From Ascidiella aspersa (lineage: Eukaryota), in the NCBI GenBank assembly GCA_963924565.1, contig OZ004609.1, positions 30,380,001-30,444,000 of the forward strand: 64,000 bases of DNA, given 5' to 3'. Shown here piece after piece: positions 15,001 through 63,743 of the stretch. Below the pieces are notes generated by a model, which was not told the DNA's origin, did no database searches, and worked only from the letters and a program-made list of their open reading frames with translations. Positions within the stretch are counted from its first letter, which is position 1; each line of letters opens with the position of its first letter. The position numbers were made by a program, and so were the translations under genes.

Positions 15001-17113
15001 TTTTGTGGCGTTCACTCTTTAAAATCGCCCTATTCACTGTGAAGCAACGCACAGCAGGCAAATATGCGACCAGGTGTGTATTCTGTGTCATCGGGTGTTA
15101 TAAAAGTCATCTTGTGTTATAAAAGCTTTTAAAAATAGCGTTCGCTTAGAAATTTCCTCGTAATTTCTTGGGAACCCACGGCTAAGTCATTGTGAAATGG
15201 CAGGGTGATAGGTGGTCTAAACTCCAAACCGACCGGTGATAATTAACGCTACAGGGACTTGCGGCGTGAGGCCCGCAATCAGCACCCCAAATAACCGTCA
15301 ATTTAGGGCGTGTTTCGCCTCTCTATGAGTCCGGATTTATCGCTGATTACTGGGCTCGCAAAGAGATCGGTCGCTTTGAAAGCCAAAAAAACGTCGAAAT
15401 GAGAATAGATTTATTGCCACAAGGAAATATCTAAACCAAAGCTTTGCCGAATGGGTCGCGCTACAAGTTTTAGTTGTTGCGAGTAGGGGTGTGATAATTT
15501 TACACAAAACCTGGCACATTTTGACTTCTTCTCACTCTCGACATGTAACTGTTAAACAAATAAAACGCAATCCACAAGTGAGCTGCAGATTAATTTAAAA
15601 ATGGGTGTAGAAGTAAATCACTAGAAATTGTACAGTCAAACTCAAAAGGATCGCTAGTTATTTAAGCAAATAACATGAGTCGGTAGTTTTGGAAGTGTCC
15701 TAGTATATGACAAAATTTTCCTTTTCAGTTTTTTAATCCAACACCGGTCAACTGATATCACAAGGCTGGTTTCATTTATGCAAATATCTTAAATTTTAAT
15801 AACGCGCTGTGGCGTTTTAAACTGCGGTGCGAACGGCGTTTTAATCTGAGTGGCAATTATTTTACGCACTGCGCACAATTGCTGACCCAAGGTCCTTGAA
15901 ACGTTGCTATATATGCAAAGGCTGCGCGCCGCTCTTTCGAACTGCGTTGTTACGTCAATGCAAAGTAAGTCTTTCTATTTGAAGCACGTGGTGTAGAATA
16001 GATTTCACTGCGTAGATCTTCGTATAAGGTGCGTTGTTTGATAGTATTTAATAACCCTTTATGTTTTTCATTATCTACGTAAAACAATTCCAAAAAGGTT
16101 TTATTACCCTAATCTGCCATTACCCTTTTTGATCAACGAAGTTTGGTATTTGTCTGTTCTACTTTATTGATTTTCGGGCCAAAACTTTTTTAAGTTGGCC
16201 TAGAGATTTATTAAGCCTTTACGCAAGCTGCTAAGTCATTGGTGTATTGAAGTATTTTTGGAGGCGATTTGCGGGCTTGGCTAATCAACGAGCGAGAATC
16301 GCTTTGCTTATTCAAGCGCTCGTGATTATTACGTAGTCAGCACGTAAATGCGGATTACAACTACCACTTGAAATCTAAACGTCAACAATAAGGAGCGGCC
16401 CCTCCAAACGCTATTCCTTAAAACTTTCCAGAAATACACGCATTTGAGATTTTCCACACACAATCTTTGCTTTTCTGACGTTAGTAGTTTGGATGCGTCA
16501 CCGTTAATTAGTCTCCGCACCTAGTGAGATAGCTTACTCATTCAGTTATTTGCCGCATGGCGAACATAGACTTTGCTTAAGAATCGCTAATTAACAAACC
16601 GATTTTGATTTTACTTTGTATTTAGACAATCAGATTAGTACTTTTTTTTATAAAACGACAACAAGTTTAAACTAAGCCGTTCTTTATAAATATAAATTCC
16701 AGTCGTTTCATACTAAATGAAATTTTACATTCGGAATCGCTTCAGTGACACAAAGAGCGCCTGTGTGAAGTTAAAAACTAAGTAAAATCCCTAATAAGAC
16801 ATTTGTGTCAAAATAATGATTTTCTCCAATATGCAGCCTGTGGTTAACAACCAAACCTTTCGGTTCCTCAGAGCTTCCCAGCACTCCTGTGGTGGCGCGC
16901 CTCAACAACCACAACCCGCACCAGCACAACCACCAGCACCAAGTCGCCTACACAACGCGCCTCAACGACGTGCCAAACCACAACCAGCACGTCTACACCC
17001 AGCACCAGCACCCTCTGCTAGCCACCTACCAGCAGCAACAGCAGCAGGCTGAATACGGCAGTGTGATCGCCCAGGAGCGCGCCCAGTTACAGCAGGACAT
17101 AGCCCACCATCAC

Positions 17114-17152
<39 letters not shown>

Positions 17153-17944
17153 AGGAGCTGTTCGCATCGCGGGTCGCGCGATTTCGCCTCGCCTGATCTC
17201 ACCAAGATGCTGGTTGAGACGGCCGGCGACGCGCTCATGGACACTTCCAACTTCCCGCCGGTCATCAGCCCCCAGGAACGCGGCGCCGGGCCCGGGGGAA
17301 TTCCAAGCGCGGTGGGCGGCTACGACCAGCCGCTCAACTACTCGCGACAGAGCGCGCGCAACAGCGTCGACTCGGGCATCATCTACGCCAACTCGCACTA
17401 CTCGCCGATGGACACCAACCTGGACGGCTCGAGCAAGGACATCTTCAACGACCTGCGCCTTTCCTCGTCGTCATTAGACAGTGGCGAGCCAACGCTCAAC
17501 ACGATCAGCCTCTCGCCGGCCACGCCCCCACGTCCGCGGCCACACCTCCAGTCCACCTTCCGCCCGCACCCGTCGCCGCGCTCCAACCAGCTCATCAAGT
17601 CGGCCTCCCAGGAACTGCTCTCGACCAGCGACGGCGCCGTCCCTGGGAACCACCCAATGGACAACGAGCTAGGCTGGCTGGACCTGACCCTAAGCGCGGC
17701 CGTGGCCGGTCCTGGAACCCCAGGTGGCCCCTTTGGCCAGATAAACTTCGCAGAGGAGCCTCACATGCAGCGCTTCCACTCCGCAATGCCCTACCAGTCG
17801 GGGGGCTACAGTGACTACGAACCAGGGGCCATGGGCGGCGCCGGCGGTTCCACTGGCACCCTTAATATCAACCACGGCATGTCGTCCGCCGAGCTCTACG
17901 AGATCGACTTATTGGACGCGCTGGGCGCAAGCTACAACACCTAG
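1..17944 (+). CDS. MRTF: Myocardin/MRTF-family SRF co-activator, 5'-partial (any RPEL/N-terminal exons lie upstream of the window)
   Basis: GT-AG exons with consistent phases: <1-79, 770-883 (KKKEKPKFKKFKYHQYIPPDQ, basic domain), 4704-4843 (YSRLLQQQQLYLQLQIM, Q-rich), 5069-5108, 5884-6027 + 6602-6669 (LDEMKVSELKEELKYRRLK|VTGTKEVLVDRL, SAP domain), 7340-7418, 10157-10351, 11949-12140 (KDKLLEEQQKEIQDLRKMVE, coiled coil), 13139-13239, 13863-13941 (PPNYEQA), 14573-14669 (QDMDALLELLADNG), 16872-17944 (poly-Q, GWLDLTL, TAG). Motif order matches the myocardin/MRTF family. Confidence 0.92.
1100..1290. repeat. Low-complexity TTGCAATTTGTAGTTTG repeats, probably a transposon remnant
   Basis: atttgtagtttg occurs three times within 1190-1262, with degenerate flanking units. 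Confidence 0.5.
8083..8619. mobile_element. hAT-like MITE in an MRTF intron
   Basis: Perfect TIRs CAGACTTGGACAACTAGA...TCTAGTTGTCCAAGTCTG, many subterminal TTCTAATCTAATT repeats, near-TSD GATTCGCC / GCATTCGCC. Confidence 0.88.
9192..9308 (+). repeat. Degenerate ~38-bp tandem repeat (3 copies)
   Basis: aaacttggtattatgt(n)nggtaanaaaactt repeated three times. Confidence 0.7.
10365..10790. mobile_element. MITE family with GACTTAAGTC/GACTTGACT subterminal repeats (copy 1)
   Basis: Starts CAGTGTTG, then many gacttaagtc/gacttgact units. Related copies at ~33810-33923, ~36170-36501, ~41907-42240 and ~55160-55230. Confidence 0.7.
13309..13590 (+). mobile_element. hAT (Charlie-like) MITE, truncated copy
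   Basis: CAGTGCGTCTCAACCTTTTT...GACCCTAATACTAAGAG, collinear with the 18310 element. Contains a 3x 18-bp tandem repeat (tatgaccgttaatgaaaa). Confidence 0.65.
14024..14291. mobile_element. hAT (Charlie-like) MITE
   Basis: CAGGGATTCTCATACTTTGTGCCGTGGCACAC...AAAGTTTGAAAACCAGTG, with degenerate 8-bp flanks aactacag/ccctacaa. Related to 34177-34457. Confidence 0.65.
17113..17151 (+). repeat. CAG/CAA poly-glutamine tract in the last MRTF exon
   Basis: caacagcagcagcaacaacaacagcagcaacagcagcag, in frame, 13 Q after HHH. Confidence 0.9.
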
Positions 17945-33200: not shown

Positions 33201-33809
33201 ACTATAAGTGAATGCTCTTTTCGCGCTTTCACTTAAACTTATAGGCGCCATCTCCTTGAATAAATTTAAATCAAATTCCAGTTAAACATTGCGCACCAGT
33301 TCGCTTGGAACAGAAAGTATTTTAAGATTAGGCCTACTTGTATTATAAGTTAACCTTGGGACGTTATCTCTGAAAAAATCCTTGTCTCCCAAGCCGAAAT
33401 ATAAGATCTGCCCAGGCAGCACTCACACAGTCCTTTGGGACATTTTCTTATTGTGTTTCCATGTCTCCTAAATTCTATAGCCGAATTCTCCAAAACATTT
33501 TTTCGGTATTGCTAAATACAGAATATACACAGCTGTTGTTTTATTCACTTGAATACATGTGGATAAATGCGATTAAATGTAGTTACAAGTGTGGAAAGAA
33601 CATCATGTCTTCCAGGTCATATCCATTTCCATCTTTACTTCTGCAAAATACCAGACAACATAAGAAAATAAATACATTACTTAGATTGCCTTTAAAATAT
33701 TATTATATTATTGTAACAATTGTTATTAAAATCAAGAATCAGTTTTTTTGTGCAAAACTAAAGATAAATAACTCAAATAAAAAAAAAATGCTTCATAAAA
33801 ACTTTATTT

Positions 33810-33923
33810 CAACTCAAGGTCAAGTCATTTTGCCCAAAATACTTAAGTCAAGTCAGATTATTTAAAAAATGATTTAATTGCACTTAGTCAAGTCATTGAC
33901 TTGCGTCATTCATTACAACACTG
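33810..33923. mobile_element. GACTTAAGTC-family MITE, right end
   Basis: aagtcaagtca repeats ending in CAACACTG, the reverse complement of the CAGTGTTG terminus. Confidence 0.65.
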
Positions 33924-33971: not shown

Positions 33972-36900
33972 CTAATAGTAATCGTCTTTGCACTCAGATT
34001 GCGTTATGCATTCATGGCCGTCCAAGAACTTGCCAGCGGGACACGCGCATCCGGGTTTGCAAATCCTCGGACAGGGCTTATTCACGTTCAAGTCGTGGCA
34101 CGTCTTGTTGCATGGAGTACATTCCCACCACACCTGCTCGTACGGACAGCCTATAGTCGAAAAAAAACGATTCCATTAGTGATTTCCAAAATATGTGCCT
34201 CGGTACACTAGTGTGCCACGAGAGATTGTCAAGTGTGCCGCGAAACTGTTTTGTAATTTTGGAAAATAAGTTATTTGCATTACCAATTAAATGTGCACTA
34301 GTCATTACAAATTAACAAAATTGAGTCATTTACATATAGTTTGTCGTATGTTAAGGCGATTGTAAAGTTAGCATATTGTTGTTCTGGTCAAAGTGTGCCG
34401 TCAAATATTTAAGATTTTTTTAGTGTGCCGCAAGCTAAAAAAGTTTGACAACCACTGCATTAACCGGGACCAAGATTCAGGTGCGTTGGGCTGTTTCACA
34501 AAAAGTAACAACATTAAAGGTATAGGGCGAAACGATTTAAAATCTCAATGTCGTTTATGGTTTCAATGTCGTTTATGGTTTCAGTAGAAATGACATAAGT
34601 TATATGAGCCGTAATTAAAAAATAAAATGTTTTCAGGCCATTACAAAGATACTCGCCTTTATGCGCATTGTAAGAAATTACTTTTAAACAAACGTAAAAT
34701 ATTATTGTAGTTTAATATAGAATAAATAACTTTTGTAACCTTCTTTTCCCCTAAATGAAGGGGTTACAGGTTACAGTTATTTATAATCATAAATCGGTTT
34801 AAGTTTAAAAACAAATGTAAATACTCTTTATATTTCCGGGGTATATAACTGCGAAAAATACATTTTTTTACTCTCATAAAAACTCGCCAATTTCAAATTC
34901 CCTCGTTTATAATACTGTTAACAATAAAAACGGTGACTTTGCGGGAGAAAAGATGTAAAGCAAAATTTTTTAAGTCTCACTTGTTTTGCATTGATCCTCG
35001 GTTACGCATTCGTATTTATTATAGTCCCAGTAGGTGCTGTTGGCGCACGCGCAACCGGGCTTGCATTCCTTGGTGCAGGTTTTGTTGCTCAAAACATCTT
35101 TGCATTTAAGGTGGCAGGGAAGGCATTGTTGGTAGGCAAGTCCATCGTAGCACCCTGTGAAGCAGAGCAAATGATCGTGTTACGTGGTTTGGATTTCCAA
35201 TATCAATATTTTAATAGATAAATGAAACTCTCAAGGTATACTCACTTATTTCTACTACTACCAGCTTGTCAAAACTAAAATATTTGTAGTTTTCTTTACG
35301 AAATCACCTTATATTATGTGTATTTCAGATCCCTTTCTTATCGACATTTTGGAGCTATTTCCAATAATTTTTGCTTTGAAACACTGATTTTTGCTTTGAA
35401 ATAAATTTATTCATTTTGTATGTTTGATGACCCAAGGCTATACGTAATAATATATAGTACAAAGGGTAATCGATCGCCAAGAGACGCTGTTATTTGATAT
35501 TTAGGTTAATTTTGGCGATAAAAGTCACATATGTTTCAGCGTGCACCCTAAAGAAATAACCCCCGGTATTTCTTCCATGCACTTCCACGTTACCATGTCT
35601 AAAACCAGGTTAAAAATCAAACTGTTTGATTTTTACCGTGACTATGTCACATCGTTCTTGGTTAAATAACAAGCGTTCCAAAAATTACCCAAACAAATTG
35701 GGAAAATACGGAAAAATACAAGCCAAACATATTGACTTACGTAGTAAGAATATCATAGCTCATACAGAAGTGGTAACATTTGTCCAAATACCTCCAACCA
35801 TTATGCTCCTTAATATCCACTTACGTTCTTTGCACTGCTGTTTAGTGAGGCATTTGCCATCGTCCCAGTAGGATCCCACCGGACAAGCGCAGCCAGGTCG
35901 ACAAATCGCAAAGCAGGGCTCGTTAGAATCCAAGTCGTCGCAATCCGTCGCACACGGAACGCACTCGTGATGGACCAGGCCTGCTTTGCATTCTTTTAAA
36001 ACATTAATACGATTAAGACCTAAAAATGAATCCCTGTTTGCTAATGCATGGGAACAGTTTTATTTGATTGATTAATAGATTGGACGGGCCAGTTGGTGCT
36101 CGTTCTTTTTGTTGGCCCTCACTTAAGAACCATTTTTTCAGGGTAAAATTAATTCGGACCAATTACCAATTGTTGTAAGTAATTTTTAGGCCTAATGACT
36201 TAAGTCCAAATCAAGTCACTTTTAAAAGCACTCAAGTCCAAGTAAAGTTGTTTTGAATAAATACCAAGTCAGGTCCCAGTCAACTCCTAGTCATAAAAAT
36301 TTAACGTTAAACTATAAAAAAATGATAAACTCGTCCGATTGATCAATAACTCAACTAAAAACTAATACAAACGCATAGTATAGCAAAGAAATTGTTTTAT
36401 GGGCAAAACTTAAGATGAAAGTCAAATCAAGTCATTTTACCCAAATGACTTCAGTCAAGTTAAATCGATTAAAAACATTGACTTAAGTCATTAGAATACT
36501 GCAATTACCCGAATTGTTTTTTGTCAGTATAGCTTTTTTCATATGCGACGTAAAAACACAGCCTAAACCTTACGTATTGGACACTGGTAGCGACGGACAC
36601 ACTTCATTCCGTTCCAATAGCGCCCTTTCGGACATTTGCATCCGGGTTTGCACAATCTCGGGCAGGGCTTGCCAATATCGCTGCAGTTTGTGCACCCCAC
36701 GCATTCGGAGTACATCTGGCCAGGAGGACAGGCTGCAGAAACAGTTTGGAATTAATGCACATTCCACTACTGTATAGGTGGAAAAACAATAATGCTATTA
36801 TTTTATTGTTTGCAACTTACTATATAGAAACACTACTAAACACTGAATAACACGAAAATCATCGTTTATGTAAATGCCTATTTATATTAAAATGTTATAT

Positions 36901-39900
36901 TCCCGTTTTGCTTTTTAATTTTTTTTAGCAACAATATAGTCCTACCCACCGAAGAAAACATGATGAAATTTAATTATCAAGTTGTCAGAAACAAATAAAT
37001 TATAACCACCTGTGTGTCAAATAATGCTAAAACAATACGATAATAACCTACTAATTTGCATTGAAACGTTCGTTGAAAAATAGGCCCAAGTGCCATATCA
37101 ATATATACCCTAAAGCCTAATACATCCGTCTACCTCTTAGGTTCAAGTATCACTGGGTAAAAAGGAGCATATCCTAAAATAAGCTGATGCTTACTTATTG
37201 GACATTGATTCGGTGGAACGCACGAAGAACCGTTCCAATAGGAACCAGGGCTACACGCACACCCAGGTATACATACTGCTGGACAAGCTACGATCTGGCC
37301 AGCGTCACTGCAGTTGAAAGCACAGGATGGACACTCCTGGTAGACCTGGTTGGACGGGCAGGCTATACACAGACAAAAAGTATTTCATTGATAAAATCTA
37401 TAGTTCCCGTTCTTTAAAGGTTAAAATGTGTGTGGGGAAATATTACTTCGGACATATGTATGTAGGCCTATTAAGTTTTAGTGTGACAGCTAATATAACG
37501 GTTAATCGCGAACACAAGAAGAAAAGGCCAATTAGGTGATATAAGGTTCTCTAGAAGGAGTTTATAAACTTATTTCCACAATGCTTTCACTGTTAATCTT
37601 AAAATAGAATGATCTGCATTATGCAAACAGGTTCTCACATAAATGAGTAGAGCCACAGACAGTGCAAAGATCACTTAAAAAATTCGTCTACCTCTTGGGT
37701 TCAATTATCACTTGGCAAAAAAATTCATGCTCTCAAAACTGCTGATGCTTACTTTTTGGACATTGATTTGGTGCAACGCACAAGGAACCGTCCCAGTAGG
37801 ATCCTGGGCTGCACGCACATCCTGGTATACATACATCTGGACAAATTACGATCTGGCCCGCGTCACTGCAGTTGAAAGCACAGGATGGACACTCCTGATA
37901 AACCTGGTTGGACGGGCAACCTACACAGAAAAAAAGTATTTGTATGTACTCCAATAATCAATACTTGTCGTTCTTTAAAGTTAAATTGTGTGGGTTGCGA
38001 TATTTTATTTTGGACATGTATTCGTTTTTAGTGTCACAGCTAATATCAACACAAAATGAACAGGCCTTTTATAGGTGATTATACAAGTTTTTGCAGAAGG
38101 AGTCGCGCTGGAGCTCTGAAAAATACATTTTATTTTCACATATTATGTTTTCACAGTAAATTTTAATGTAGAATGATCTGCATGATGCAGACAGGTTTTC
38201 ACATAAATATAGACACGTACAGATAGTTAAAATATCGTTAAAAATGTAAAAGCTTGCTAGCCAAGTCTTCTCATTGAGTCCTTAGGGTCCTTCTTGCAAA
38301 CCCTTTATGCCACACTAAGCGGCCTCCACCCAGTCTAGGAACCTCTGTTATATGGTAAATCTTTAATTTAAAAAAATATTTTGTTAGGCCAAGCGATGCT
38401 TTTTTTATAGATCAAGCAATTCGCCTTACTTGGCGGGCATTGGTCGGGTGCTACGCACTTCGTTCCATCCCAAACGTGCCCTTCTACTCGGCATTTACAC
38501 CCAGGAATGCATACAAGTAAACAGGGCTTGTTAAGGTCTTTGCAATCGTTGCAGCCAACGCATTCGCTGTAGATTTGGTCTTCCGGACAATCTATTTAAA
38601 AAAATGATTTTTAATATAATCAAAATGAAAAATAATTAAAAGATAAAAAAATGTTTGTTTTTAGTCGAATAAAAGCTGTTTCAGCTAAGGCTGTGTATTC
38701 TAAATACATAAAATCATAGTAAACGTATAGTTTTTATTTGTTTTATCTTTAGTTATATTCACAAGTGCTTAACTATTTTGTTTTATTAAATATATTTATT
38801 ATGATGTTTGGGGAATATCCCGAACTAATGTCAACCTACGCATCTGTGGCAGCACTATTTAAAAACGGTTTAGTTAAGGCTAATCTGGTTAATCCAGTTT
38901 CATGTTGGTGAAATACACTTGTGCAAATAAAAGGGTACAATTGTATGAACCTAAAAAACTTTAACTTTAAAAAATGTTCATGTATTTTTTTCACGTTCAA
39001 GCAAATAGCGTACACTAAATAAACAGCGTAACCAGTTGGCACTATAGAAAGAAAAATTGTATTGAATTCTCACAATCTTTTGCACTTCGTCTGGTCAAAG
39101 TAACAATGAATCATGTTTCATTTCTACTTTGACCTGATGGAGCACGGTTGTGCGAAAGCTTGTCGAAAATTCAATACAATTTTTCTTTTTAATTGCCACC
39201 TGATTACACCGTTCAGAATTAGAAAAATACGTCCATTTACTAACATTAAAAAAATAGCGTAGACTGCTATGTAAAACGCTTTATATGTGATAGTTATGTA
39301 TTCCCTTACAGTTTGCACATTGTTTCGGCGCGACACAGTAAGATCCGTTCCAGTAGGTTCCAGAAGTGCAAGCACAGCCAGGAATGCACGCACGACAAAT
39401 CACTTTCGAATCCAAGTCATTGCAGTTGAAACGGCAAGGCGGGCAGGTTTGGAAGACTTGGTTCGCCAGACAAGCTGAATGAACGAGATGATAAAACGTC
39501 AAATTGTTTTGTTTGGGCGGGATAACTGCAAATCACCGGATATAATATTTTGTGTCGAAATTTATGAACATAACTATCTTTAAACGAACGAAAAAGGGAA
39601 ATATTAACTCCATGCGCCGTAGTTTGGTGACTCCTGGTTTAAAGGTGAAACGTAGTATACACGGATTCTTGCATGTCGAGGATTGTTTTCTTCTTAAAAT
39701 ATTATACATATAAATAGCAAAGCCAAATCGGATGAGTAAACGACATCATCGTTATGAAGACTTTTCGATAACTATAATTGTATCATCATTAGTTATAACA
39801 ACTGGAATCCATTTAATCCCCGCTTATGACCGGAATTTTGGGTACACTTTACTGTAGCCTATAGGTTAAATATAATAATATCACAGCAGAAAAGGTCGAG

Positions 39901-42900
39901 TAAATACACATGTATACTCGACCTATTTGGCTTTGTTGTTTATGCTCAAGCTACATCACAGGTCGGTGAGTAGTATGCCGAAATGTCATAATTGATTTAA
40001 TAATAATCAAAGTATTCTTTCGAATAACAAAATCTACCTGAATCCGTATGGTGAAAACAAACGATTCTGGTTGCACATCAATGATAAAGATCAAACTAAG
40101 TACAAAGCTTAGTAAACCGAAAATCAGTTTGTTTGTATGTTACAAAAAGATAAATATATTTCGCTATAAAGCATCATCAGTATCTTAATTCGAATGAATC
40201 CATTCGTATGAATTTCAAAACACTTCGACGGTTGTTTCTCCTCGTAACGATAGCACATAGTCTTACTTGGAGGGCATTGGTCGGTTGCTACGCACTTCGT
40301 TCCGTCCCAAACGTGTCCTTCTACTCGGCATTTGCACCCAGGATTGCATATAAGTAAACAGGGCTTGTTAACGTCTTTGCAATAGTTGCAGCCAACGCAT
40401 TCGCTGTAGATTTGGTCTTCCGAACAAACTTTAAAAAGCAGGTTTAGATATTGCAACGATATGCATCTAGTGGTTTAACAAATTATTAAAAGTTAAGTAA
40501 GGTATCAGAACGCTCTTTCTAGCTGATAAATTCTTTATATACATATATATACAAAAACACAAAGTGTACGCCTTCCACGGTTAAATTTCACGTTTCTCAA
40601 CCCAATGGTCGCCTACTCCAGTAGCTCACATGTAAACATTTATTGAGATGGGTGTTTAGCAAAACTCATACCAAATTTAAAAACCTGTAGCTATAGAAAG
40701 ACATGCTGACATCATTTTTATTGAAATGATATTGTTTCTATGTTTTTCTCAGTTAAGATCCAAAAAGGTTAAGAAAATTGCATGGGTCATCAAAGATTTG
40801 TGTTATACTCATGCTAAGTATTTCGGGTAGCAGCGAAAAATGTTAAAAAGGCACTAGAAGTAGATATTCGCACAATCGACAAGTAACATTTAACAGTTTT
40901 ACCTTTGGGACATTGATTCGGTGCAACGCATAAAGAACCATTCCAGTAGGAACCAGGGCTACACGCACATCCCGGTTGGCAAATTAACGGACAAGCTACG
41001 TTCTGGTCCGCGACACTGCAGTTGAAAGCACAGGATGGACAATCCTGGTAGACCTGATTGGACGGGCAGACTGTATAGATAAGAAGAAACAAATGCTAGG
41101 TTATTTTAGTTACTCAAATATTCTATAATTCTCTAATGGTTGCATAGTAGGTTGCGATATTTTAATTGTATTCCATTTTAATGTAACAATTATACCGGTT
41201 AATCGCAAAACCGCTGTAAGAAATATATTTATTTCGACAATGCGTTCACTGTTATTTATAATGTAGAATGATATGCGTTATGCAAAACGTTTTTTAGATT
41301 AGCATAAGAGAGAAACAATTATTTGATTAGAAGATATTTACACAGTTTTGCCAAGTAAGACTTTAACACTCTTACAGTTTGGGCATTGCGATTGATTGAC
41401 ACATTTCATGCCGTCCCAGAACTGTCCACTGCTGACTGGGCATCTGCATCCCGGCTTGCAAATTCTCGAGCATGGCTTGCCAATATTGCTGCAGTTTTGG
41501 CAACCAGCGCATTCGGAGAACTCCTGGCCAGCTGGACATTCTGAATTAAGCATTAGAGCATGCTGTAAAGTTTTTACCGTTCTGCCGAAAAATAAGTGTT
41601 GTCTACGGCTCTACGCTATCCGCTCCGACTCTACTTCAACTATAGATTGACTCGGTATTTAGCATTTTAGCGCGATTGGACGTGACACATATGGTTAGCT
41701 TGCACTTAGTTTGAATCTGAATGAATCAAAATAGTTAGTTAGCGCGTTACGGTGTGAAGTTATTGTGTGACGTCAATTGTAGCCTAAATGTCCTCGTCCC
41801 TCCAACAATCCGGATTTCCGTTTGAAATAAGCTATAAATCTAAGCGGTAAATTTTACTGGCTTTGCGACAAAATGGCAATTTTTTAGACAGGCGGTGATT
41901 TAATATCAGTGTCGTAAACAAGTCATTTCAAAATGACTTAAGCCCCAGTCAAGTATTTTGTAAAGTAACTTAAATCCAAGTCAAATCTTTTGAATAAATC
42001 ACAAGTCAAGTCATAATTATAGCAGGTCAATTCAAAGTTCAGTACTTGTTATAAAAATTAAACGTCCACTAAAATGGGTATACTCTCTCGATTATTAGCA
42101 ATATCTCACCTAAAAAATAGAAAAACCCAACACAGAGCAATATGTTGAACAATTAAGATAAATAACAAGTCTAGTAATATGTACAAAAGGCTTAAAGCTA
42201 CTGAAATAATTTGTCCGAAAGACTCAATTCAAATTATTTACAAACAGGGACTGGAATTAAATAATCAAAAGGAAAACTAATCTTACTTATGGGGCATTGC
42301 TGTGGGTAGACACAGGCCGTTCCATTCCAAAACTGACCCCTGACCCGGCATTTGCACCCGGGCTTGCAGATTTTCGGACAGGGCTTTCCGACGTCATCAC
42401 AGTTGTTGCATCCGACGCACCGCGTATAAAACTGACCGGTTGGACAGACTGTAAGCAAATCAAAACTTTCATGTGCATAAAACCGCAGTCGGTGTCGCCA
42501 TATTTCATGGGCTAATGTTGGAGTTGGCAGCGAGTGGTTTTGTAAACAAATAAAAAGCTTTACAAAACATCATAGAAAGTTTCCTTTAATAATTTCTGCA
42601 AAAGGTAAGCAAACTTGAGTTTGCAATTTGTAATAAGTTTTAAAGTATGTTAATGAAACAACCACCAACTAAACGTAATTTAACAAATCGGTTTAGGTCA
42701 TAGTAGAGACAATCGAGTCTGCCCCAACAAAATTAAGTTGGATAGCCTCTATATACCAAATAGACTCGATTCTAGTGGTTGGGGAACCACGGCTGAACGC
42801 TATCATATGACCAGAAGTAATTAAACCTTTATATACTTTTGCAAAATTACCGTTGGGGCACCAATTGGCGTACACACAGTCTTTGCCATTCCAGTATTGA

Positions 42901-45517
42901 TTCCTTCGACACCTGCAGCCGGTTTTGCAGTCCTTGGTGCAAGTCTTGTTGGTGCCCAAGTCTTTGCAATCGGTTACGCATGGCAGACAGTAGCTTAAGT
43001 ACTGACCGTCCGGGCAATCTGACAATTGGTAAACAAACAGTGATTGTTTTAGGATTTTAAAGCACTGCGTAAAAAAGTAAACATCTTGGAAAGACGCAAG
43101 TCTGTCAAAAACTTATACAACTAAATTTTCCCGATTGAGTTGTATGTTTTTAAGACAGGCTTGTGTCATTCAAAGTTAAACAATCATGCTGTGTCCGCCT
43201 GTGTGAGCTGACATAGGCTAGCTAACCTAATCGTATGGTAATTAATCGTTAATGTAAATCACAAAGGGCAATTCGGGTCAGTAACAATGGCCCTGTCAGT
43301 ATTTTTTATCAATTGTTGCTCTGCCCACTACTGGAACTTACTTCTTCGCAGTTTGTATAGTAAGTTTTGTTTACAATATTGGGAATGGAAGATATTGGGA
43401 AACTTACCCTGAAGAAACTAAAACGGGCCTATTTCCCTTTTGTCGTTCCAGTATTGTGCCACATTCCCAACTATAAGTCAGCAGATAAAAATGATGGGAT
43501 ACTGAAACCTTCACCAATTAATGTTTCCTCAAAAAAAGTTCTGGCCTATTGCAAAAGTAATATTAAGTATAATTATAAAATGTGTACCTTTTGGACATTG
43601 GTCTTTTGTCACACATTTCTCGATGTCGTCATTCCAGTAAGTGTCTTTGGCGCAAGCACACCCGGGTCTGCATTCTTTGGTACAGGTTTTGTTATAGGCG
43701 ATGTCGTCGCAGTGCAAATGGCAGGGACGACACTCGTGAAAAGCCAGGTAATCCGGACAACCTTTGTACGAAGAAAATCGACCATTTTCACAAAAGCGCT
43801 TTAAGAAGCAGATTGATTTAAAAGCGGCAATGTATCCTGACGATTAATTTATTTCCAATTTGGAATTACACTTTTCCAAGAAAATTATGTGAGATGAGTA
43901 GTTTTATCGTAACGAACATACGGATTTACGCTGGACCATCTTTGGGGATCCTTTTTTTTAATCGCTGAAAAAATCTAGGACTATAGCCAAGGGGTTCTTA
44001 AACTCGGGGCGCCGTGAAGGACTCTCCTAAAAAAAATGTTTTTATTTATTTAATATCAAGTTTGGCTAACACGATAAATTCTTTTTAAATACTTTTTAGT
44101 CGTGACTAACACAGATTATTTTTTAGTTTATTCCAATCATTAATCACCTCAGTAGCCAAATTCTCGTTTTCAGTTGACCTGAATATGACAGAATATACTT
44201 ACTTTGAACACTGTACAGTGTTGTCAGAGGGAATTGTATTAGACCATTCCTCGAAACTATATACTTTTGCTAATTCACTAAATCAATCCAAACGATTTTC
44301 GCGCATCGCGAGGACGAGTTTATTTGTTGTAGTCCTTTTTACTGTTAATACTTTTATATAGGATGTATTTCCAGTTAAAAGGCGCCCACGCGTTTTATTT
44401 TCCAAATGCTATTAAGACTCTTTAAAGTCCTCTTGCCCTTAGGGTAATGACAACGCATAGGGTAATGACGTCATTTGTATTGGATCGGTCGGCTGCACTT
44501 TTCGCCAAGGCATCAGACATTTCAAGGCGTCAGTTTTAAAATGTTAGACAACCATAAAAGCGTAACGCGCGTCTCCCGGACTCACGTTTGCACTGATCCT
44601 TGGTCACGCATTCGTCTCCGTTCCGGTATTTGTCGGCAGGACACGCGCATCCTGGCCTGCATTCCTTGGTGCACGTCCTGTTGCTCAGCACGTCCTCGCA
44701 CTCCAAGTGACAAGGAACGCATTGGTGGTAAATCAGGCCGTCGTCGCAACCTTTAAAAGATTTTGTATACGTTATAGGCGCGAAAAAGTCAAAGTTATCG
44801 TGGTCGAAAATATAGTGTATAGTGTTTCAGCCCAGGTGCACAAATGCACCGCCTTACTAAGTCATTTACGCAGTTAGAATTTCTTCTCGGGTATTTTCAG
44901 AAGCAGCTATAGCTTTTAAGATTCGCCGATAAACCTTACCAAAGCAAAAAACAGTCAAAACGCAGAAAGACATGAAGCTGTATAAAATAAATATGAACTT
45001 TGCTCGTATTTTGTTGAAATTATATGCTAATTTAATACTAATTTACAAGGTTCGAAATTCATTTAGGATATGCCTTAAAATATGCCTGTATGACATTTTC
45101 TTTGTATGAATTTTTTAGGGGGAACACTGGTCCAGGCGAATTGCGGAGCTGTGCTTATTTTCACGCTTTGAAAAACTTATTGGGAGTTTTTAATGTAAGA
45201 AAAAAAATTAAGCCAAGATGAAACAATTTGTTTTTCTCAAAATTTTTGACACTTACCCCCGACCTCGTTCTATTAGAAAGTTATGTCGGCACTATTATGC
45301 CTATATATGGACCTGCTGGTCTGTCTTTCCTATCGCAAACCGGTGGTATACTCTTTGTTGCAAAAGCAAGAAAGGTAATGCAGATAGAAAACGTATCAAA
45401 TCGTCTACGCCACAAACAAAACATTTAAAAACATTACTTACGGCGGCCGTAATAGGTTGCGTAGGCTGTCGAACAAGCAGTAGCCAACACGAGAAACAAT
45501 AGAGTCGAGAAGTTCAT
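33972..45517 (-). CDS. Secreted multi-TIL-domain protein B (signal peptide + 15 TIL domains; putative serine-protease inhibitor)
   Basis: Exons: 45517-45442 (MNFSTLLFLVLATACSTAYA-TYYGR), 44750-44586, 43761-43588, 43018-42851, 42448-42287, 41540-41376, 41070-40903, 40428-40267, 39474-39310, 38591-38430, 37920-37753, 37362-37195, 36732-36574, 35992-35825, 35154-34981, 34150-33972 (...CKDDYY TAG). Every internal exon is 159-174 nt, phase 1-1, and encodes one 10-Cys TIL domain. Confidence 0.88.
34177..34457. mobile_element. hAT (Charlie-like) MITE
   Basis: TAGTGATTTCCAAA...GTGTGCCG repeats...AAGTTTGACAACCACTG. Confidence 0.75.
36170..36501. mobile_element. GACTTAAGTC-family MITE
   Basis: Clusters of gacttaagtc/caagtca at both ends, terminating in AATACTG. 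Confidence 0.65.
39024..39211. mobile_element. Foldback/hairpin MITE
   Basis: ~80-bp imperfect inverted arms (CAGCGTAACCAGTTGGCAC...AAAGAAAAATTGTATTGAATT...GGTCAAAGTA and its reverse complement) around a ~22-nt spacer. Confidence 0.75.
41907..42240. mobile_element. GACTTAAGTC-family MITE
   Basis: Starts CAGTGTCG, then caagtca/gacttaag repeats collinear with the 36170 copy. Confidence 0.6.
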
Positions 45518-48600: not shown

Positions 48601-53958
<5,358 letters not shown>

Positions 53959-61332: not shown

Positions 61333-63743
61333 ATGCAGTGTACAACTTTGATTACAGCAGTTGTTGTGTTGTGCAATATCATTGTGCCGGTAAGTGTGCA
61401 ATACGCATGGTTGTATTTCTTGTGAAATTGTAGTAAGTGTTAATTATAACATAACTGTAATTATTTGCAGGTTGTGAAGGCAAGCAAGTGCAAGGGGGAA
61501 CACGAGTATTTGGATGCACTCGGAGAATGCCAATTGTGCAGTCGTTGTGGTGCTGGTTTTGAACCGAGCTCGGTTAGTTTCCTTAATAAAACTTGTTTAT
61601 TATGAAAAAACTGGTGCTGGTCTAGAATGCTAAAACATTTTCATATTGCCAACATTGTTTGGGTGAGGGTGTGAGTTTAGCATTTGGTTCCGGGTTGGTC
61701 AAGTTGTACTATTATTATATTTATTGCCCCATATTTGTTTGTTCTTTGCAGTGTCATTTTGACAACTCATATTGTTACTTTAAAAAAAGTGACAGTTAGG
61801 ATTGTAGACCAGCGCCGAAGAACTTGTTTATTAGAAATATATAATATATTGGGCGCTGGTCTAGAATCCTAGCACAACGAAACACCATTTGGGTTAGGGT
61901 GCGGGTTAGTGTTTGGGTTAAGGTGGGTCAAGCATTATTATTAAACAAAGAATATAATAACACTTGACCCACCCACACCCAAACGCTAACCCGCACCATA
62001 ACTAAAATTTTGTGCGTTGATTTTAGAACTGTGGTAGGATTCTAGACCAGCGCCATATATTGTTTTGTTTTTTAATTATGCCATACCCCTTTGAAAATAC
62101 ACAATGTATTTTTGGGTTTGAAACCATAACTTTGGTCTATATGCAATAAAAGTATAAAGCCAAAATACATTTTTAGCACATTAAAAAAAATCCTGGCTTA
62201 TTATTCGTTTATTTGTTTTTCTTTCTTTCCATTTATTTAGAAACTATTTATAGTCCTGCTTTAACATATTTGAATGACAGAACATGACTTTAACCCAGCT
62301 AGTAATTCTAATTAAAAAATTATTATTAAAATAGATTTTATTTCATTGAAATTCATTTTTTTTACACTTTTGGTATTTTTTTAATTTTAATGAATTTTAT
62401 ATTTGAATTTTTTGTTGCTTAATTTAGCATCTGTGTGGATTTGGCCATAAAGACCCTTCCTACAAATGTGTTCCATGTGAGGAAGGAAGCTTTTCAACTT
62501 CCCTTGATTACAAGCTGTGCAGAACATGCCAGGTAATCATTATTCAGATTTAATACAAAGATTAACATACTGCGGTTATGTTTTTTTTCATTTTATCACA
62601 TTTTGCATATTCATACAGCCGTGTACCGGTTGGAATGCCAAGACTGAGTCTCATTGCACCTCAACGAAAGACGCAGAATGTGGAGCCTGCCATTCTGGGT
62701 TCTTCAGACCATTGATGTCTGATGGGAAATTGGATCATGAGTGTCACAAGTGCACAGACCCAGAAACACCAGGATGTATGTTTATGCGTCATGCTAAATA
62801 AATAGTCATGCTAAAAGCATATATTTTTATAAATATAACTATTTTTCTATGTAGTGATTTTTGTAGCTTTCTTATTAGTTTATTGGATTTTAGACAATTT
62901 CTATTAAAGATAATGTTTATTTCTCTAAAAACTTTTATGTAATTGCAGGTGAAGGGCAGGAGGTGATCGGACTTGTATTGGGAGTCATTGGCGGAGTTAT
63001 TTTCATCATCCTAGCAACCTCTTTGTGCCTGTGGTGTCTCTTCAGAAGAAGACCTGTCACTAAGAAGCAGGGTAAAAATACAAAATTACTTGTTTTGATT
63101 TTGAAGACCGAATTTCAGTTAACATGGAACTAAATTTGTCATTAAATGAATTTTTGTAAAATTTGGCTATCTTCTAGCTTAATTTTATAAAGCTGTTGCT
63201 TGCAATATATTATTACTCAGGATTGGACAAGTTTGCTAATTTTAAAAGTTTTAACATATTTTATTATTTTGATGCAAATGACTGGATTTTTGTTATTTTT
63301 GGCAAAGGAGTTCAACTTGGTTTAGGTTATTTTGCAAATCACATTTAACTGAGACTGAAGTCGTTTCAAAATGATTGTTTACCATGCTGTAAAGTTGTAT
63401 TTGTCCATAAACACAATTTTGATGGCTTACAAGATTAGTTCTTGTATTTAATTTCATGCGATAGATGGTATTCTCATACACAGTACTGAATTAAAAGTTA
63501 AATAGTGAAATGTATTTTCATATATGTAGTATGTTTTGGAATCTATAAAGCCTTTTAATAATTTGCTGATTTTGCAGAAACCCAGCAGTGCAGCGTTATG
63601 CTGAAGTGTGCTAACAACGAGGACACAATCACGAGCTCGTCACTCGAACCATTGACGACAACCCAATCTCAAGAGCTGTTCGTGCAACAAGAAGGCAGCC
63701 CCTCGTCTCTTAAGGCTCAGCGCTCCCCGGACATAAGAACAAT
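61333..63743 (+). CDS. TNF receptor superfamily member, TNFRSF19(TROY)/EDA2R-like, 3'-partial
   Basis: Exons: 61333-61389 (signal peptide), 61471-61572 (CKGEHEYLDALGECQLCSRCGAGFEPS), 62428-62532 (LCGFG...CVPCEEGSFSTSLDYKLCRTCQ), 62619-62775 (PCTGWN...HCTSTKDAECGACHSGFFR...DHECHKC), 62949-63071 (TM VIGLVLGVIGGVIFIILATSLCLWCLF, then RRR), 63578-63743 (cytoplasmic). Cys spacing and the CGFG and CxxTxDAxCGxCxxGF(Y/F)R motifs match the TROY/XEDAR clade. Confidence 0.85.
61613..61816. mobile_element. Merlin-like foldback MITE, older copy
   Basis: GGTGCTGGTCTAGAATGCTA...TAGGATTGTAGACCAGCGCC, with degenerate TSD aaaaaact/gaagaact. Confidence 0.75.
61852..62054. mobile_element. Merlin-like foldback MITE
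   Basis: GGCGCTGGTCTAGAATCCTA...TAGGATTCTAGACCAGCGCC, perfect 8-bp TSD ATATATTG (61844-61851 / 62055-62062). Confidence 0.9.

Follow-up and report, generated by a model that had tools for sequence, protein, structure and literature searches.

A fifteen-domain TIL gene of Ascidiella aspersa with the predicted features of a multi-headed serine protease inhibitor of mixed specificity

The window considered here is a 64,000-nt stretch of the Ascidiella aspersa genome (assembly GCA_963924565.1, contig OZ004609.1, positions 30,380,001 to 30,444,000; positions below are those of the window). Its minus strand carries gene B, a signal exon followed by 15 exons that each encode one TIL domain. Gene B probably encodes a secreted, multi-headed inhibitor of the I8 type with mixed specificity, in which the order of the reactive loops would come from local duplication of exons.

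The spliced coding sequence of gene B has 2583 nt and translates into 860 amino acids without internal stops, ending with a stop codon at 33972. Every intron is of the GT-AG type and in phase 1. The TIL exons lie between 44750 and 33972, the range given by the initial annotation, which holds for all 15 of them and misses the start of the gene, the 76-nt signal exon at 45517-45442. Cysteine-rich modules are visible on the minus strand in six-frame translation, and in the domain alignment all ten Cys columns are invariant (150 Cys, 15 × 10). All 15 exons match the Pfam TIL family (PF01826), 13 of them singly above the curated cut-off, and from start to stop Pfam recognizes only TIL in the product, with no VWD, C8 or other module. 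Linkers between the domains have 2-3 residues, and the protein has 17 N-glycosylation sequons. The leader is the highest hydropathy window of the protein, no second stretch being equally hydrophobic, and the product is presumably secreted.

RNA run X4, chosen by its species label and read to ~6%, gives 2-38 reads across every one of the 15 consecutive joints (10 for the joint from the signal exon to TIL exon 1), on the strand expected from a minus-strand transcript. All the joints are also held by contigs of run X3, which was taken as RNA, and runs X1 and X2 as DNA, judging from the joints, as the kind of run is not on record. No exon-skipping joint was present among the joints listed (15 of 180 in one scan and 15 of 17 in another), and with ~6% of X4 read rare isoforms are possible. 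Fifteen TIL domains in one chain is the plain reading of these joints. A joint that goes back, from 41070 to 37753, was seen in 6 reads and only when exon 11 was excluded from the stretch; it reads as exon 10-to-11 reads placed on the look-alike exon 6, and alternatively some haplotypes may have an additional exon-6-like copy.

At the ends of gene B, a TATA-like TATATAAA lies at 45592-45585 on the minus strand, ~70 nt upstream of the start codon. A splice-donor-like GTGAGT directly follows the stop codon, with an acceptor-like site at 33641 (33971-33641), and 31 RNA reads cover 33622; together they suggest a separate 3' UTR exon. Short high-copy repeats with very high contig depth and loose ends lie in or beside the introns (~33820-33870, 34250, 35740-35770, 36190-36480, 39120-39190, and 41900-42030).

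The loops between Cys5 and Cys6 were listed in the initial annotation from N- to C-terminus, and the spliced translation matches that list exactly, in content and in order. The loop has three residues in 14 of the 15 domains, with 12 distinct sequences, and two residues in domain 8. Predicted heads comprise eight with basic P1 (domains 1-5, 12, 14, and 15), five with Leu or Ala (6, 7, 9, 11, and 13), and one with Asp (10). CRAC of domain 8 is one residue short and has no assignable P1. The best solved match of domain 6 is 1EAI, an Ascaris inhibitor of chymotrypsin and elastase, and the two align loop-to-loop (CPLIC vs. CPLMC, E 2.5e-06); Leu31 of 1EAI is taken here to be the P1 residue. The Ascaris trypsin inhibitor presumably has the loop CTREC with Arg at P1. 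Its chain was not among the sequence-search matches, and 1ATA appeared only in the fold lists; a CTREC loop is present in 8J3Q, the best solved match of domain 2.

TIL inhibitors are classified in MEROPS family I8 (bioRxiv 10.1101/2024.10.04.616518) and inhibit through the Cys5-Cys6 loop, whose middle residue is P1 (PMC3606364). Lys or Arg at P1 gave trypsin inhibition to two silkworm TIL proteins, BmSPI38 and BmSPI39, and the P1 change Ala56Asp made BmSPI39 weaker against the enzymes tested (PMC10004685). Loop swaps between TIL inhibitors change activity, but the chimeras did not always carry the profile of the donor (PMC3606364), so class labels based on P1 alone are soft, including those given to the domains of gene B. 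Mixed specificity is predicted since P1 is at mid-loop and gene B has basic, Leu/Ala, and Asp residues there. Weak or altered heads are likely in domain 8, with its short loop, and in the Asp allele of domain 10.

In the mechanism proposed, gene B would be transcribed and spliced to give the 860-residue chain with its hydrophobic leader and fifteen TIL domains, a secreted, multi-headed serine protease inhibitor of the standard mechanism (Ascaris type). Each Cys5-Cys6 loop, pinned by two disulfides, would act as a substrate mimic with its middle residue in the S1 pocket, as is established for the family. Predicted targets are trypsin-like proteases via Lys/Arg and chymotrypsin-, elastase- or subtilisin-like proteases via Leu/Ala.

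Mixed loops were compared among 239 proteins fetched with the gene B profile, of which 151 have at least three three-residue loops by pattern (the counts precede four later additions). Basic and hydrophobic or small P1 residues are mixed in 99 of the 151, an acidic P1 occurs in 63, and all three classes occur together in 42. Ala, Leu, Lys, and Arg account for 606 of 1001 homologue loops and acidic residues for 111, and two-residue loops are found in 20 of 1235. Among the distinct three-residue loops of gene B, nine of 12 also occur in other proteins, including CPRIC (42 of the 239 proteins), CPAVC (27), CPLIC (21), and CPKIC (21). For example, a Ciona protein of 757 aa has 12 TIL loops of mixed kind, including CPRIC, CAAVC, CTLQC, and CPAVC. 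The named close matches of gene B are Ciona, Phallusia, and Herdmania proteins; no one-to-one orthologue was found among the matches, the best single-domain identities being ~40-57%. According to PMC3278429, multi-domain inhibitors carry various P1 residues, and the four-TIL silkworm protein BmSPI48 was proposed to act against two protease classes. Gene B is thus an ordinary design, and the inference of several target classes is already published. The suggestion that one polypeptide could block several classes of protease keeps its footing in a single spliced gene and in the dependence of inhibition on P1 (PMC10004685, PMC3606364); that such a polypeptide is unusual is not supported.

The A. 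aspersa genome has at least 116 TIL matches. Further TIL exons were present in eight of 13 fetched genome stretches, often as arrays with mixed loops, and the matches of paralogous TIL exons to a Phallusia protein reach 69%. Multi-TIL arrays with different loop sets lie on G000:C3 near 17.85, 21.81, 26.90, and 35.78 Mb (L001-L003, L005, and L006); they include runs of CTLAC/CTLDC/CTLGC and five-residue loops such as CSLQKRC, as in Phallusia protein P0003.

Several observations weigh against reading gene B as an inhibitor of mixed specificity. Its inhibitory activity is a prediction, and short reads show neighbouring joints rather than a full-length mRNA (15 of 180 joints listed). Nearly all P1 mutants of BmSPI38/39 retained inhibition of subtilisin and elastase (PMC10004685). 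The homologue set was fetched with the gene B profile, which biases it toward gene B-like loops, and is partly redundant. P1 shows no hypervariability over the 15 domains as a whole, where its entropy ranks 17th among 42 non-Cys columns, although of the 12 columns that vary in the 6/10/11 trio it alone has three residues. Non-inhibitory TIL modules of vWF and mucins give the best profile and fold matches, and the fold scores (Z 3.6-6.1) cannot separate the two kinds.

These matches, topped by vWF, mucins, and FCGBP among solved structures and by MUC5AC and vWF in fold searches, are what would be expected if the product were a TIL rod with a structural, adhesive or matrix function, similar to vWF and mucins or to "zonadhesin-like" silk and glue proteins, in which loop variation would have no inhibitory meaning. 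The 17 sequons, the very short linkers, and a P1 position of ordinary variability fit such a rod as well. The TIL modules of vWF, mucins, and FCGBP are located within VWD-C8-TIL-E assemblies and are not known as inhibitors. Gene B has none of the accompanying modules in its spliced product. Its loops resemble those of solved inhibitors (1EAI CPLMC, 1HX2 CDKKC, 1CCV CTMQC, and 8HWU CIAVC), differ from the vWF loops CQERC, CNEAC, and CMSMGC, and keep the three-residue length in all domains but one, which makes the rod an unlikely alternative.

Structural models were obtained for two of the 15 domains, 8 and 6, and have the TIL fold (mean pLDDT 85 and 84, respectively). The top 26 fold-search rows for domain 8 and the top 25 for domain 6 are TIL-bearing chains, with Z up to 6.1 and 5.8; the best matches have an rmsd of ~2 Å over 54-55 residues and middling scores, and Foldseek gave no match under E 0.001. 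Canonical inhibitors of the Ascaris type have the disulfides 1-7, 2-6, 3-5, 4-10, and 8-9 and an exposed loop of canonical conformation; in both models the Cys5-Cys6 loop has no regular secondary structure and lies in the block of lowest confidence (pLDDT 76-77). Fold comparison was rejected as a test of inhibitory vs. structural TIL, as domain 6 with its normal loop and domain 8 with its short loop score alike against 1EAI (Z 4.2 and 3.6). The models fit vWF and mucin modules at least as well as they fit inhibitors, so that function cannot be read from the structure.

The order of the loops follows the kinship of the exons. In the domain tree, 6/8/10/11 and 7/9 form groups with support of 98 and 100, respectively, both of which persist with the loop removed, and domains 1 and 14 (73% DNA identity) and 5 and 12 (74%) are sister pairs. 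On the loop-removed tree basic and non-basic P1 switch 3 times, compared with 5.2 in shuffles (p = 0.04, with domains 8 and 10 coded as non-basic). The tree explains most of the block order, and P1 class tracks it. A tandem duplication of ~560 nt, exon and intron together, gave rise to exons 10 and 11 (73% over 600 columns). Under the proposed mechanism, phase-1 exons of one domain would duplicate locally and leave a block-like order as a by-product of history. The Leu/Ala block 6-11 would consist of two lineages (6/8/10/11 and 7/9) that expanded between basic-P1 domains whose sisters lie on both sides (1-14 and 5-12).

Alternatively, an N-terminal block of trypsin type and a central block of chymotrypsin/elastase type could be kept apart by selection, e.g. 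for the release of fragments of different specificity or for action on several enzymes of one cascade. Several lineages did contribute to the five consecutive basic P1 residues, and 6-11 becomes an unbroken non-basic run once domains 10 and 11 have their Ala and Leu alleles (see below), which speaks for the blocks (p = 0.051 for neighbours and 0.008 for post-hoc runs). Over six codings of P1 the run test gave p = 0.036, 0.28, 0.091, 0.008, 0.018, and 0.19, i.e. below 0.05 in three, with run lengths taken post hoc from the data themselves. The neighbour test over the same codings never fell below 0.05 (p = 0.15, 0.64, 0.25, 0.051, 0.086, and 0.34), and p rises to 0.53 when sisters 6/8/10/11 and 7/9 each count once, this collapsing being the choice of the analyst. 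The order of P1 classes is therefore borderline beyond chance. Loop order in the homologues is near random (p < 0.05 in two of 57; 219 same-class neighbours vs. 204.9 expected). The linkers KR, after domain 1, and KER, after domain 13 (44586/43761 and 35825/35154), have the sole basic pairs among the 14 linkers and are possible cleavage points, but they miss the borders of the blocks. A functional order, or design, is improbable when set beside the kinship of the exons.

Loops in the central part of gene B, and one at its end, differ between runs. In domain 10, Ala replaces Asp through changes at the adjacent positions 37835/37836, found in seven of 16 X4 reads, in all of X2 and X3 and in none of X1; the other nine X4 reads keep the window letters, so the Asp allele is transcribed. 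Domain 11 has Leu-Ile for Ala-Val (CPLIC) in X3 and in three of three X4 reads, and this loop is covered by spliced data only (X3 and X4); flanking changes at 37153-37241 occur in X1 and X2, and in X1 the flank exists in both forms (22 of 52 depth). The domain 11 tract comprises 15 changes at 37211-37280 (70 nt), followed by none in the next 51 nt of the same contig. Nine of the 15 are located within 19 nt around the loop (p = 0.0004), where most of them agree with exon 6. At P2 of domain 15, a change at 34070 gives Thr in 25 of 37 X4 reads, in all of X2 and X3 and in none of X1. RNA editing was rejected as the source of the changes in domains 10 and 15, as intron-spanning X2 contigs carry both. 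Of the 13 amino-acid changes among the rows listed (40 of 387 and 40 of 115), four are in loops, which make up 44 of the 685 non-Cys residues of the mature protein; with this coverage, and with two of the four in one tract, an enrichment in loops cannot be claimed.

Exons 7 and 9 are 94% alike, with three synonymous differences at 26 sites, and are embedded in introns and flanks that BLAST does not align. This likeness and the bunched tract of exon 11 that matches exon 6 point to exon-limited gene conversion, which probably moves loops between sister exons. The loops of block 6-11 would then still be changing, with the P1 alleles of domains 10 and 11 arising by conversion. Positive selection was not shown; in the 6/10/11 trio synonymous sites of the loop differ as much as replacement sites, as fits exchange of tracts. 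Literature searches found no description of within-species P1 alleles for ascidian, insect, spider or fungal multi-TIL genes or for BmSPI48. It is possible, though doubtful at present, that the central exons are an exchangeable library of bait loops, in which conversion moves Leu, Ala, and Asp P1 residues among 6, 10, and 11, the alleles are kept by selection, and individuals differ in their coverage of proteases, as an anti-protease defence diversified in the germline of an invertebrate chordate. If the P1 alleles were selected and made by exon conversion, gene B would offer a tractable diversifying anti-protease defence in a tunicate.

The Asp at P1 of domain 10 had been regarded as unusual, a view that does not agree with the 111 acidic residues among 1001 homologue loops, with Ala in other runs, or with the effect of Asp at P1 in BmSPI39. 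That domain 10-Asp is dedicated to inhibiting an Asp/Glu-specific protease, which would be compatible with an inhibitor of mixed specificity, has little probability: the allele is transcribed, acidic P1 recurs in homologues, and two adjacent bases separate it from Ala, but X2 and X3 have only Ala, and the weaker Ala-to-Asp mutant of BmSPI39 (PMC10004685) makes a weakened head equally plausible.

Single inhibitors of the Ascaris type (C/E-1, 1EAI; AMCI-1, 1CCV; BSTI, 1HX2; LL-TIL, 8HWU/8J3Q; SjAPI) share with gene B the ten-Cys TIL domain and the three-residue loop. They have one domain of 56-61 residues and known inhibition, whereas gene B has 15 domains per chain, one two-residue loop, and predicted inhibition. 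Closer in build are the multi-TIL "zonadhesin-like" or TIL-only proteins with tandem mixed loops, such as Phallusia A0A6F9DXU9, Ciona XP_078481982.1 and XP_078482213.1, and Herdmania HmEGFL-1 (O18464), as well as multi-TIL proteins of insects, spiders, and a fungus and silkworm BmSPI48. Functional studies of ascidian multi-TIL proteins, HmEGFL-1 included, were not found in literature searches. The TIL modules of vWF, gel-forming mucins, and FCGBP belong to the same family and fold, and gene B differs from vWF, gel-forming mucins, and true zonadhesin in being TIL-only, without VWD and C8. An analogy is offered by the multi-repeat potato type II inhibitors, in which tandem domains are duplicated, concerted evolution proceeds by unequal crossing-over or conversion, and P1 is diversified (PMC2259423). 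Their fold is unrelated, and positive selection on P1 was shown there by codon models, whereas in gene B it is only suggested. As mixed P1 residues are common in multi-TIL proteins and the multi-class inference is in print, the mixture itself has limited significance. Gene B is a natural panel for P1 specificity, with one scaffold, 12 distinct canonical loops, one short loop, and Asp/Ala and Ala/Leu alleles. The exons are listed in Table 1.

Table 1. Exons of gene B, with Cys5-Cys6 loops and predicted P1 residues (window positions).
Feature	Position	Strand	Evidence
Exon 1 (25 codons + 1 nt): start codon and hydrophobic leader resembling a signal peptide	45442..45517	-	hydropathy, RNA joint
TIL domain 1, CTKEC (44673-44659), predicted P1 Lys	44586..44750	-	Pfam, translation
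TIL domain 2, CTKEC, predicted P1 Lys	43588..43761	-	Pfam, translation
TIL domain 3, CTKDC, predicted P1 Lys	42851..43018	-	Pfam, translation
TIL domain 4, CPKIC, predicted P1 Lys	42287..42448	-	Pfam, translation
TIL domain 5, CSRIC, predicted P1 Arg; sister of domain 12	41376..41540	-	Pfam, tree
TIL domain 6, CPLIC, predicted P1 Leu; clade 6/8/10/11	40903..41070	-	Pfam, tree, 1EAI alignment
TIL domain 7, CLLIC, predicted P1 Leu; 94% DNA identity with domain 9	40267..40428	-	Pfam, tree
TIL domain 8, shortened loop CRAC (39397-39386), P1 not assignable	39310..39474	-	alignment, model
TIL domain 9, CLLVC, predicted P1 Leu	38430..38591	-	Pfam, tree
TIL domain 10, CPDVC (37843-37829); P1 Asp in window, Ala in other runs	37753..37920	-	reads
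TIL domain 11, CPAVC (37285-37271); other allele CPLIC	37195..37362	-	reads
TIL domain 12, CPRLC, predicted P1 Arg	36574..36732	-	Pfam, translation
TIL domain 13, CFAIC, predicted P1 Ala	35825..35992	-	Pfam, translation
TIL domain 14, CTKEC, predicted P1 Lys; sister of domain 1	34981..35154	-	Pfam, tree
TIL domain 15, CPRIC (P2 Thr in other runs) and stop codon	33972..34150	-	reads, translation

The neighbouring gene A (29056-25399, minus strand) has its own leader exon and eight TIL exons. Five near-identical exons carry CTADC or CSADC, and the first exon has a one-residue loop, CAC. In its paralogue L008 (G000:C3:30768155-30770221) each of the four exon types of gene A occurs once; gene A has thus expanded one exon five-fold, the same exon accordion as in gene B.

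Elsewhere in the window, exons at ~51238-53389 (minus strand) are probably alpha-tubulin-like, judging from their motif, and cysteine-rich exons at ~61450-62798 (plus strand) presumably resemble TNF-receptor repeats. An open frame of 374 codons at 16820-17944 (plus strand), with poly-glutamine and a GC-rich second half, is probably the 3'-terminal exon of a gene for a transcription regulator.

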